DNA of 64,000 nt, taken from Escherichia phage BEU44. Under the pieces are notes generated by a model that worked only from the letters and a program-made list of their open reading frames with translations, had not been told where the DNA came from and did not search any database. A program made the position numbers and the translations under genes. Shown piece after piece: positions 20,408 to 22,776 of this stretch (the stretch's first letter is position 1; each line of letters opens with the position of its first letter). The stretch lies in sequence record OM632670.1; one strand, given 5' to 3'.

Positions 20408-21550
20408 TCATGTAATGTTAATAACTTTCCCAAATGGAACTTGTGCACCAGGGTTACGAATAACTACCCATATGACAGGAATGTCAAATGGCAATGGCTC
20501 CATCGGTCTGACTTCTAAGTCAGTAAAGATAATGGCAGCAGTAGGCTTATGCTTAATAATCCACTCACGTACAGGAACCAGACTAGTACCACCCCGTCCT
20601 TTGATAGTGACATCAGTAAACTTATCACCATCTTCAATGACTTGTTCATCTACAATCTCTGTAGTGAACTGAACTAGAGTCATCTTCTGAGGCTGGTATT
20701 TCTCTTTTACATAGGCCACTTCAGAGCTAAAGCGTAAAGCATCTTTAGGTTTAATGGAGCCAGATGTATCGAGGAAATAAGCCAGATGTTCCAGTCTACC
20801 GTCATCATCCATAGGAGATGGTAGGTACATATCAGGGTATCTACGATTAGGCCGTTGCCATGAGTAGTAAGTTTCTTGCAGGTCATTGAAGAAGCGTTCA
20901 AGTAAGACCTGCCACGGTACTACTGGTTTCAGGAATTGAGTAATAACTTCTTCCATTTTTCCAGGTAATACCCCAGGCAAAGAACCACCAGATAGTTTCT
21001 GTTGGTGCATGGCTCTTACTACATTATTGACAATATTTACCTGACTAGCCTTCGAAGTGGAAGGTTTCATGTCACCACCTGAGCCAGCCCCAAAAGCACC
21101 TGATGCTTTAGGAGGACGTATCTGTTTGCTCATGAGGTCATCATAGATTTGTTCTTCAGCCCAACCAGCATACTTAGAGTCTTTCCAGCAATTTTCGATT
21201 CCTATAAAGCTGTAGCCATCCTGAATAAGCTGATTGTTGATATAAATATCACAGGCATAATTCCATACTTCTGGGTCACGAGAACCCATACGAACAGAAT
21301 GCAGTAAGCCGACATGCCATAGTTCATGCATGAGTACTGTTACACGAGATTCAGGTAATAGACTCTCAAACCAATCAGGATTCCATTCGAGATGCTCACC
21401 ATCGGTTTGTGCTGTATCACAGCCATCTTTTACCCAACGGAACTTCAGAGAACATAACAGTGAACCAAAGAATGCAGCAGTTTTGCCCATAAAGGCTTTA
21501 GCCTGACATCTGTCATATTCACGGGTTAATTGAGCATCTGTCATGGACAT
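20408..21550 (-). CDS. VWA-domain protein with N-terminal HExxH metallopeptidase-like domain
   Basis: 380 aa; HELWH zinc-binding-like motif; MIDAS-like DTSGS in C-terminal half; partner of MoxR-like ATPase. Confidence 0.55.
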   Translation of the reverse strand: MSMTDAQLTREYDRCQAKAFMGKTAAFFGSLLCSLKFRWVKDGCDTAQTDGEHLEWNPDWFESLLPESRVTVLMHELWHVGLLHSVRMGSRDPEVWNYACDIYINNQLIQDGYSFIGIENCWKDSKYAGWAEEQIYDDLMSKQIRPPKASGAFGAGSGGDMKPSTSKASQVNIVNNVVRAMHQQKLSGGSLPGVLPGKMEEVITQFLKPVVPWQVLLERFFNDLQETYYSWQRPNRRYPDMYLPSPMDDDGRLEHLAYFLDTSGSIKPKDALRFSSEVAYVKEKYQPQKMTLVQFTTEIVDEQVIEDGDKFTDVTIKGRGGTSLVPVREWIIKHKPTAAIIFTDLEVRPMEPLPFDIPVIWVVIRNPGAQVPFGKVINIT

Positions 21551-21551
21551 A

Positions 21552-21731
21552 TCAGTTTTCCTCTGCGAGATGAACCCAAATGGTATGGGCTACACGTTTC
21601 TTTGGACGAAAGTATTCAACTGCCTTTTGTTTAGCAGCAGCCAGACTTGGGGCATATACGGTAATTTTTTCACCGTTAAAGCCAGCAACATACAGGAGGT
21701 CTGTAACTCCTTTCTTGTTAATTGGAACCAT
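21552..21731 (-). CDS. hypothetical small protein
   Basis: First ATG at 21729-21731; longest ORF starts GTG at 21764; between AAA and VWA genes. Confidence 0.3.
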   Translation of the reverse strand: MVPINKKGVTDLLYVAGFNGEKITVYAPSLAAAKQKAVEYFRPKKRVAHTIWVHLAEEN

Positions 21732-22776
21732 GAACGTATTTAGATAATGTGATTGCAGCAACACGCCAGTTCGGTAATTTAACCAAAGCTGGAACCAGAC
21801 TACCTACGGAACGGTAGTACAAAACCTTGAACGTAAATGGCATACGTTCAACGTAATCAAAGATTTTCGAATGATTATCTTCGTCAGTATTGTTAATCAG
21901 TGAAGTGACTACAGCCCACAACAGGTTATTGTCTTCAGGCATACGAGCTTTCTTAGGATTATCCAAAATCTCATTCAAAGACACCATGTTGCTATAGACC
22001 TGAGTAAACTGGACGAATGATGTTGCTACACCAGAGGTGATAGTGCCTGCTAATAGCAGAGTCATTTCACTATCAATCGGTCCCGGTGGGAGAATGGAAA
22101 CAATCTTGTTAACGAACTCCCATGTACGAGAACAACAGAAAGTCTTCTCTTGATGGTCTGGTTCAAAATCATTCAGTTTATTTGGGTTAGCATTCAGGAA
22201 TGCAATTACACGCTCATCCCATTTGTTAGGGATAGCTACATCTTCCATAAAGACATCAAAATCAGTCTCCATTTCCAGATGAATAAGACGTGATTGCATA
22301 GCTGTAGACAGGTTATTAGTAATGGCACGGTCAGTTGCTTTGTTACCAGCACATACGATAGCTACATAAGGATGTAGCTTCTTCTGACCAGTCATACGGT
22401 CGAGTACCAATTTATAAGCAGCAGCCTGAATCTCTTTACGAGCAGAGTTAAACTCATCGAGAAAGAGAAGCCAGCCATTAAATCCTTCAGGTACAGTATC
22501 CCCTTCCAGTGGGAATAGCTCGTCAAATGGAGCAAATTCAGCACGACCATTTTCTTTAAAACGAGGCAGACCTGACAGGTCTTCTGGTGCTGAAGTAGAC
22601 AGACGATGGTCAATCAGTTTCAGGCCAAAGTCTTCTGCAATCTGATGAACAATTGCAGATTTACCCATACCAGGAGATGAAGTGATAAATGGAACCAATC
22701 CTGAACGGATACAGTGTTCAACAAATTTACGTACCTGCCGTGGATTACATACGGCAATAGAATCAATACTAGCCAT
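21718..22776 (-). CDS. MoxR-like AAA+ ATPase
   Basis: 352 aa; Walker A SSPGMGKS, Walker B-like LLFLDEFN; ATG at 22774-22776 with GGAGAG SD. Confidence 0.6.
   Translation of the reverse strand: MASIDSIAVCNPRQVRKFVEHCIRSGLVPFITSSPGMGKSAIVHQIAEDFGLKLIDHRLSTSAPEDLSGLPRFKENGRAEFAPFDELFPLEGDTVPEGFNGWLLFLDEFNSARKEIQAAAYKLVLDRMTGQKKLHPYVAIVCAGNKATDRAITNNLSTAMQSRLIHLEMETDFDVFMEDVAIPNKWDERVIAFLNANPNKLNDFEPDHQEKTFCCSRTWEFVNKIVSILPPGPIDSEMTLLLAGTITSGVATSFVQFTQVYSNMVSLNEILDNPKKARMPEDNNLLWAVVTSLINNTDEDNHSKIFDYVERMPFTFKVLYYRSVGSLVPALVKLPNWRVAAITLSKYVHGSN

Follow-up and report, generated by a model that had tools for sequence, protein, structure and literature searches.

Within a 64,000-nt window of Escherichia phage BEU44 (sequence record OM632670.1), to whose numbering all positions below refer unless another record is named, the region 20408–22776 carries a gene for a MoxR-class AAA+ ATPase and a gene for a protein that joins a zincin-like domain to a VWA domain. 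In total, three open reading frames (ORFs) occupy this region, all of them on the minus strand: the ATPase gene (21718–22776; 352 aa), a small ORF (21552–21731; 59 aa), and the gene for the VWA protein (20408–21550; 380 aa), whose product consists of a zincin-like domain, a linker and a minimal VWA domain. The original prediction, made from the DNA sequence without database searches, had named an AAA+ ATPase gene at 21718–22776 followed by a small ORF and a 380-aa protein with the motifs HELWH and DTSGS; the coordinates of the former proved right, and the latter two were found where they had been placed. The region shows 100% DNA identity to five Escherichia phage BEU records and 97.9% identity to phage N4 (9938–12306 in that genome), and, therefore, the window belongs to an N4-type coliphage (Enquatrovirus, Schitoviridae). 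Judging by protein identities of 99.4% and 98.7% to N4 gp24 (YP_950502) and gp25 (YP_950503), respectively, the two large genes are orthologues of these N4 genes, from which they differ in nothing material, and the gene order and neighbours of the pair match those of N4 as well. The small ORF is 96.6% identical in N4, but it is left unannotated in both the RefSeq and GenBank records of that phage.

The ATG codon of gp24 is preceded by a GGAG ribosome-binding site located 8 nt upstream, and the gene product matches PHROG 1297 ("ATPase") with an E-value of 1.3 × 10−136. Residues G36, K39 and S40 of the Walker A motif (SPGMGKS, residues 34–40; minus strand, 22657–22677), D107 and E108 of the Walker B motif (LLFLDE, residues 103–108; minus strand, 22453–22470), as well as N145, R163 and R217, are invariant across 30 gp24 homologues. 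By position only, R163 may be assigned as the arginine finger and R217 as sensor 2, and the complete set of AAA+ core elements (Walker A, Walker B, sensor 1, arginine finger and sensor 2) was found in gp24. The AlphaFold2 (AF2) model of gp24 (pLDDT 83) has an alpha/beta core and a long, all-helical C-terminal half (residues ~185–350). Foldseek analysis revealed that the ten solved structures closest to this model are nine NorQ structures and one CbbQ structure (E-values from 5 × 10−8 to 4 × 10−7), followed by dynein AAA modules, RNF213 and RavA, and the alignment profile of gp24 matches the AAA region of Midasin (E-value, 0.0044). Thus, based on the invariant motifs, the fold nearest to NorQ/CbbQ and the profile match to Midasin, gp24 is an AAA+ ATPase of the MoxR class whose helical C-terminal half is unusually long. 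Between strand 2 and the Walker B motif, the protein carries a long insert (DHRLSTSAPEDLSGLP) that is invariant in the 30 homologues and lies within residues 56–100 (DHRLSTSAPEDLSGLPRF...; minus strand, 22477–22611). Alignment columns 55–71 are near-invariant, yet the insert is modelled with low confidence (pLDDT 46–60). By analogy to NorQ/CbbQ (PMC9976466), the insert is a candidate helix-2 insert or pore element.

The ATG codon of gp25 is preceded by a GAGGAA ribosome-binding site. Two Pfam families were recognized in the protein with strong support, DUF2201_N ("putative metallopeptidase domain") at residues 10–245 (E-value, 2.6 × 10−86) and DUF2201 ("VWA-like domain") at residues 256–380 (E-value, 1.4 × 10−46), so that the proposed combination of an HExxH domain with a VWA domain in one polypeptide is borne out, with both sites conserved. 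The AF2 model (pLDDT 81) comprises an N-terminal helical domain, a poorly ordered linker (residues ~145–250), and a compact alpha/beta domain. According to the secondary structure of this model, the zincin-like domain extends over residues 1–150 (minus strand, 21101–21550) and is built of helices, a three-stranded sheet, the HExxH helix and one more helix after it; the HELWH motif (H75, E76, H79; minus strand, 21314–21328) is found within helix 66–81, which is preceded by strands 36–39, 47–49 and 53–56. H84 (minus strand, 21297–21299) and D101 (minus strand, 21246–21248) are candidates for a further metal ligand. The VWA-like domain (residues 256–380; minus strand, 20411–20785) adopts a Rossmann-like VWA fold and holds a complete MIDAS motif (DxSxS...T...D), composed of DTSGS (residues 261–265; minus strand, 20756–20770), T322 (minus strand, 20585–20587), and D344 (minus strand, 20519–20521). 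In the monomer model, a hairpin of strands 289–295 and 299–306 is followed by an unstructured loop (residues 307–321).

Conservation of the HExxH motif in homologues, a check put forward together with the original prediction, speaks for the assignment. In 30 N4-like gp25 homologues (51–85% identity), H75, E76, H79, H84, N97, D101 and N105 are invariant, and so are the MIDAS residues D261, S263, G264, S265, T322 and D344. A search of 1.84 billion representatives with gp25 resulted in 14,141 proteins (representative clusters at 50% identity; E-value ≤ 1 × 10−3), the best 150 of which (34–51% identical) were aligned with gp25. HExxH is present in ~96% of these 150 diverged relatives, and the counts in the alignment of 151 sequences are 145 for H75, 140 for E76, 144 for H79, 140 for H84 (with Asp in another seven), and 148 for D101. 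The MIDAS residues are conserved at 99–100% (D261, S263 and S265 in 151/151, T322 in 149/151, and D344 in 150/151). This conservation indicates that both sites are under strong purifying selection. A profile of the N-terminal 150 residues of 27 diverse gp25 members was also run against PDB sequences. It gave 12 weak matches, ten rows of which are HExxH peptidases, with matches spanning ~45 residues: the minigluzincin MJ1213 takes the top three rows (best E-value, 0.008), and HtpX (0.04) and BepA/M48 (seven rows, ~0.2–0.3) are found below it, while the two unrelated rows are YjbA (0.056) and an L51_S25_CI-B8 protein (0.99). These matches are consistent with, but do not prove, a zincin fold of the gp25 N-terminal domain. 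With minigluzincins and M48 peptidases (MJ1213, HtpX, BepA), gp25 shares a strand-loop-HExxH-helix core, but its conserved His at +5 and Asp at +22 from the second His of the motif are spaced unlike the gluzincin Glu ligand. Direct searches of PDB sequences with full gp24 and gp25 returned noise only.

Homologues of gp25 carry the label "HNH endonuclease" or "homing endonuclease" in the RefSeq records of N4, RaK2, S-TIM5 and Paride, as well as in those of many Vibrio and Pseudomonas phages. The affected genes include the one at 20408–21550 of the window and its counterparts in loci L001 (7001–8143), L008, L009 and L011, and PHROG 1314 bears the same label. Since the protein has no HNH domain and is built of zincin-like and VWA parts, this label is a propagated annotation error, and, being so widespread, it is worth correcting.

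The small ORF had originally been listed as a 70-aa reading frame (21552–21764). PHROG 19202 covers only residues 12–69 of this reading (E-value, 1.5 × 10−33), and, therefore, the ATG at 21731 is probably the start, giving 59 aa; no clear ribosome-binding site was seen at the start of the small ORF. It overlaps the stop codon of gp24 by 14 nt and ends 1 nt ahead of the ATG of gp25. A homologue (51% identity; E-value, 3 × 10−12) is found at the same position in a distant N4-like contig (L003, 5225–5365), and none was found in the other loci compared beyond N4 and L003. Thus, the small ORF is not a general third component of the module.

The two genes and their architecture have already been described, and what serves as a useful lead is their distribution across different genetic elements. 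The pair appeared in a 2009 listing under the names "putative ATPase, AAA superfamily" and "vWFA super-family", its functions being given as unknown (PMC2784036), and in 2014, gp24 and gp25 were counted among 14 core genes of N4-like phages, both being middle transcripts (PMC4193335). Iyer et al. (2021) reported the same architecture in jumbo phages and, citing Acidianus two-tailed virus (ATV), proposed a role in virion assembly and proteolytic processing (PMC7824862).

The pairing of the MoxR and VWA genes, as had been predicted, was examined in 25 independent loci with a full-length gp25 homologue, and a gp24 homologue was found in 24 of them, the sole exception being located at the end of a contig. 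Among these 24, the rV5-like locus L010 was counted on a weak gp24-like fragment of 63 residues (E-value, 6 × 10−5), which is situated 3.7 kb away from the gp25-like gene on the other strand. The 348-aa "anti-termination" protein that adjoins the gp25-like gene in the rV5-like phage turned out not to be an ATPase homologue. Searches by tblastn with gp25 matched 684 phage and 75 plasmid records. Loci with gp24 and gp25 occur in Schitoviridae of four subfamilies, the jumbo phages RaK2 and Paride, and cyanophage S-TIM5, with four non-N4 phage lineages in all, and a structure search of BFVD added more phages with this architecture, Bacillus phage PBS1 among them. Non-viral carriers are plasmids of Burkholderia, Cupriavidus, Rhodovastum and Arcobacter, plasmid pSYSA of Synechocystis, Nostoc plasmids, and cyanobacterial chromosomes. 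The ATPase gene directly precedes the VWA gene in N4, LIT1, the Sulfitobacter phage, RaK2 and S-TIM5, and it lies a few kb off in Paride and also in a Vibrio schitovirus, whose gp24 orthologue (42% identical) is located 6 kb upstream. A 498-aa "homing endonuclease" encoded upstream in Paride was rejected as a gp25 paralogue. Scanning of a genome collection with the N4-like alignment gave only six loci, mostly on phage-like contigs; among the candidates, a match in Methylomonas (L007) was discarded as short, weak and outside any long ORF. Pairs of N4-like type (44–50% identical) were also seen inside long bacterial contigs of Roseococcus (L003, 297 kb) and Mesorhizobium (L004, 727 kb), and these could be integrated or co-assembled N4-like elements in alphaproteobacteria.

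In N4, the pair sits in the block of middle genes, with the RNAPII genes on one side and genes for nucleotide metabolism and replication on the other; it is in the middle-gene arm, ~10 kb from the strand switch, and not in the late structural arm. In the window, the neighbours downstream are genes for dCTP deaminase (19895–20401) and ThyX (17930–18928), while those upstream encode an HNH endonuclease (22977–23333) and an SPFH protein (23622–24458). A scan for promoters and terminators found no more sites than in shuffled sequence. The neighbours in phages are mixed: genes for nucleotide metabolism or replication are found near the pair in N4, LIT1, the Sulfitobacter phage, RaK2 and S-TIM5, and small heat-shock genes are also near it in RaK2 and S-TIM5. 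A thymidylate synthase gene of ThyX or ThyA type lies 2–3 kb downstream in N4, RaK2, S-TIM5 and the Sulfitobacter phage, which are otherwise unrelated (17930–18928 in the window, 8198–9127 in L008, 7633–8304 in L009, and 7325–9991 in L020); this proximity may be either a coincidence or a conserved linkage.

On the plasmids of Burkholderia, Cupriavidus and Rhodovastum, a gene for a conserved protein of ~300 aa is inserted between the ATPase and VWA genes (modules L012, 4036–8137; L014, 4946–8176; L015, 5910–9191; L016, 2862–6106). Its alphaproteobacterial and betaproteobacterial copies share 32% identity (E-value, 1 × 10−43). The protein matches no Pfam, NCBIfam or PHROG family and has no counterpart in the window, and, therefore, it gives no pointer to a partner in N4; an unrelated 330-aa protein occupies the middle position on the Arcobacter plasmid. 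The Burkholderia ATPase has a match to the same PHROG as gp24 (E-value, 9 × 10−63), and the module of this plasmid, which adjoins type IV secretion genes, also holds a beta-clamp-like gene (Pfam DNA_pol3_beta_2; E-value, 3 × 10−9). In the Burkholderia gp24 orthologue (L012, 4036–5061), FFDDLGQA is found in place of FLDEFNSA of gp24; with the catalytic Glu of Walker B thus replaced by Asp, this copy may bind ATP and hydrolyse it poorly. In Rhodovastum, a Toprim/DUF3991 gene adjoins the pair. The two genes are adjacent on pSYSA (sll7028) and on a Nostoc plasmid, and on pSYSA they are surrounded by toxin-antitoxin and DUF262 genes. On cyanobacterial chromosomes (L022, 1674–17275; L023, 5061–9992; L025; L027, 1705–9305), the pair is accompanied by LRV/HEAT-repeat proteins and, in one case, by a WD40/pentapeptide protein, and genes for BRCT, HIRAN, E2-CBASS/JAB/ThiF, HEPN/MNT, BrnT, PemK and GIY-YIG proteins are found nearby. 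This setting is conflict-island-like and could mark an undescribed defence system.

Several described systems are comparable to the gp24–gp25 pair. As seen by cryo-EM, a single VWA protein (NorD) binds one MoxR hexamer (NorQ) with a finger in the central pore, its MIDAS engages acidic residues of the client, and the partner is remodelled by ATP hydrolysis (PMC9976466, PMC13036017). The pair resembles NorQ–NorD and CbbQ–CbbO in the fold of the ATPase, the VWA partner with MIDAS and the adjacency of the genes, but sequence identity is ~15%, and the helical C-terminal half of gp24 is much longer. Compared with NorD and CbbO, gp25 has a minimal VWA domain, carries a zincin-like peptidase domain at its N-terminus instead of a client-specific binding domain, and has no evident metalloenzyme client. 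The RaK2-type jumbo phage pair (group 2.2 in PMC7824862) has the same two-gene design, a MoxR protein and a vWA protein with an N-terminal metallopeptidase, and its products are homologous to gp24 and gp25 (30% and 25% identity, respectively). However, while the jumbo phage pair has been proposed to act in virion assembly, the pair of the window belongs to a 70-kb podophage and has orthologues on plasmids and chromosomes, which argues for a more general role. In the vWA–MoxR ternary conflict systems (Kaur et al. 2020, PMC7159879; PMC12839542), a MoxR protein is likewise accompanied by a vWA protein fused to a peptidase effector, and the cellular relatives of gp24 and gp25 share with them conflict-type gene surroundings and extra repeat-protein partners. 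The ternary systems are, however, defined by a third component (VMAP, iSTAND, FtsH or a beta-propeller), and as effectors they mostly have trypsin- or caspase-like peptidases, metallopeptidases being rare. No third large component was found at the N4 locus, which has only the 59-aa ORF between the two genes, and PADLOC gave no match, so that the locus does not qualify as a ternary system; the cyanobacterial relatives, in contrast, have LRV/HEAT, WD40 or pentapeptide partners. Another virus-encoded MoxR–VWA pair, p618 (MoxR) and p892 (VWA) of ATV, comes from an archaeal virus, lacks a peptidase domain, and is tied to extracellular tail development; the structural match between gp25 and ATV ORF892 (E-value, 1 × 10−4) is detectable in the VWA domain only.

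Conserved motifs, folds and near-obligate gene pairing support a MoxR–VWA machine, and a general mechanism of this kind is likely. The ATP-driven processing function that had been suggested from the sequence is a reasonable hypothesis. As for the whole interpretation that we favour, namely that gp24 and gp25 form an ATP-driven machine or protease of MoxR–VWA type which acts on an intracellular target and is not a dedicated enzyme of capsid maturation, we would give it an even chance, a non-virion target being our best but weakly supported guess. By analogy to NorQ–NorD and CbbQ–CbbO, gp24 would form a hexamer, on which one gp25 molecule would dock via its VWA domain. The MIDAS metal of gp25 might then capture an acidic residue of the target, and ATP hydrolysis would remodel the gp25–target complex, after which the zincin-like domain may cut the target or may itself be switched on or gated by the remodelling. 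Distribution and gene context suggest that the target would be an intracellular protein that mobile elements generally meet: either a host or competitor factor, in the course of conflict or takeover, or one of the proteins of the replication phase; that it belongs to the virion is less likely. Of the two roles considered in the original prediction, virion maturation is weakened by the occurrence of the pair on plasmids and chromosomes, while action on a target inside the cell, of host or other origin, is the better fit. In their gene neighbourhoods and variable accessory partners, the cellular pairs are reminiscent of conflict systems. A bolder extension of the favoured interpretation, which seems to us possible though doubtful, regards the pair as the minimal form of a widespread ATP-gated protease module that is shared by virulent phages, conjugative plasmids and bacterial conflict islands and that mobile elements, while becoming established, would employ to destroy or remodel a conserved host protein, such as a factor of immunity or of the stress response; those cellular versions that have LRV/HEAT or WD40 partners would then be defence systems with this engine at their core.

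Several observations weigh against the interpretation that we favour. Our literature search returned no experimental study of how gp24, gp25 or DUF2201 proteins function; data on the essentiality of the two genes were not found either, and "phage N4" does not occur in the CRISPRi-ART phage functional-genomics paper. Anti-defence functions are typically variable, and a core gene that every schitovirus retains would be an unusual example of one; moreover, conflict-type neighbourhoods were seen in just a few cyanobacterial loci. In RaK2 and S-TIM5, the pair is flanked by genes for structural proteins of the virion, and in roseophage RPP1, genes for virion proteins are located close to it (PMC4193335). 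As to the proteins, the expected AAA_5 assignment of gp24 does not pass the Pfam cut-off (E-value, 1.2 × 10−3; 19.3 bits against 22), and neither does Pfam AAA (E-value, ~1 × 10−3; 19.6 bits against 21.2), yet the ATPase is backed by structure and by the match to Midasin; gp24 relatives from other loci reach AAA_5 weakly. Neither NCBIfam nor PADLOC gave a match for gp24, the small ORF or gp25. The zincin fold is based on a Pfam family named "putative" and on weak PDB profile matches (E-values, 0.008–0.3), the third zinc ligand stays at two candidates (H84, His in 140/151 and Asp in 7; D101, 148/151), and the VWA domain of gp25 is minimal (125 aa), with no demonstrable pore-inserting finger in the monomer model.

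Some of these observations are what would be expected if the pair were a virion-assembly chaperone and maturation protease that folds or assembles structural proteins, such as the giant virion RNA polymerase, the ejection proteins or the tail, with the zincin domain trimming them. This role, which has the precedent of ATV p618/p892 and the jumbo phage proposal (PMC7824862) on its side, together with the VWA match to ORF892, the structural gene neighbours just mentioned, and the membership of the pair in the universal core, as with structural functions, is also in keeping with the lack of a known scaffolding protein or prohead protease in N4-like phages (PMC11445570). Nevertheless, we consider it unlikely. 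Orthologous pairs are carried by conjugative and other plasmids and by cyanobacterial chromosomes, none of which produces virions; the N4 genes are located in the middle block and not in the late structural arm, which does not fit the location of a prohead protease; and in LIT1 the gp25 homologue overlaps a helicase gene. Structure studies of the N4 and DEV virions mention no protease or proteolysis (PMC13434306, PMC11445570), although this is a mere absence of mention. As the pair is common to virulent phages, plasmids and chromosomes, maturation of capsids or tails is therefore unlikely as its general function, while a phage-specific use of this kind is possible.

In LIT1, the pair lies next to the genes for helicase and DNA polymerase, which leads to another explanation, a protease linked to replication or repair that removes or remodels a DNA-bound protein (a clamp, single-stranded DNA-binding protein, stalled topoisomerase, relaxase or other covalent adduct), comparable to the AAA+-partnered metalloproteases that act on DNA–protein crosslinks. 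The same direction is indicated by the short distance (a few kb) between the pair and a gene for thymidylate synthase, dUTPase or dCTP deaminase in N4, the Sulfitobacter phage, RaK2 and S-TIM5, by the beta-clamp-like gene of the Burkholderia module, by the adjacent Toprim/DUF3991 gene in Rhodovastum, and by the BRCT and HIRAN proteins near the pair in Synechococcus. However, Pfam and NCBIfam revealed no DNA-binding domain in either gp24 or gp25, the neighbouring genes vary with none of them constant, and the clustering in phages may reflect shared timing only, so that we rate this explanation as quite unlikely. Less probable still, in our estimation, is a chaperone for cofactor insertion or enzyme activation in the style of NorQD, CbbQO, CoxDE or CobST, which would serve a phage or host metalloenzyme and use the zincin-like domain as a binding module. 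Most of the characterised MoxR–VWA pairs work in this way (PMC9976466, PMC13036017), the nearest structural relatives of gp24 are NorQ and CbbQ, and gp24 has a weak match to the CobS-type phage family phrog_249 (E-value, 1 × 10−6), but 140 of the 151 aligned sequences retain the catalytic Glu of HExxH, which argues for catalysis over mere binding, and no candidate client enzyme accompanies the pair consistently in the phages, plasmids and bacteria compared.

Both gp24 and gp25 are among the ~14 genes common to all N4-like phages. Should they prove to be a protease that is driven by ATP and directed at a protein of the host or of a mobile element, this would be the first characterised MoxR–VWA system with a proteolytic output, and a universal step of Schitoviridae infection would be explained.

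Apart from the gp24–gp25 region, the arrangement of the deposited record itself deserves mention. The rIIA gene (98.7% identical to N4 gp33) is found at 1–2526 of the window, where it adjoins the gp47–gp43 region, while between rIIB and gp32, where the gene is normally located, the window has a precise, gap-free junction (17254/17255). The identical 2526 bases open all five BEU records, in the opposite orientation, and the junction of rIIB and gp32 is common to BEU42 and BEU51. This placement of rIIA looks like a linearisation or assembly artefact of the deposited records and not like a real transposition. In addition, the GC skew changes its sign between 30–32 kb and 32–34 kb of the window, and the left genome end of N4 would, by colinearity with that phage, map near position 32,713. 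Thus, the physical ends of the genome seem to lie within the window, a sign of a permuted record.

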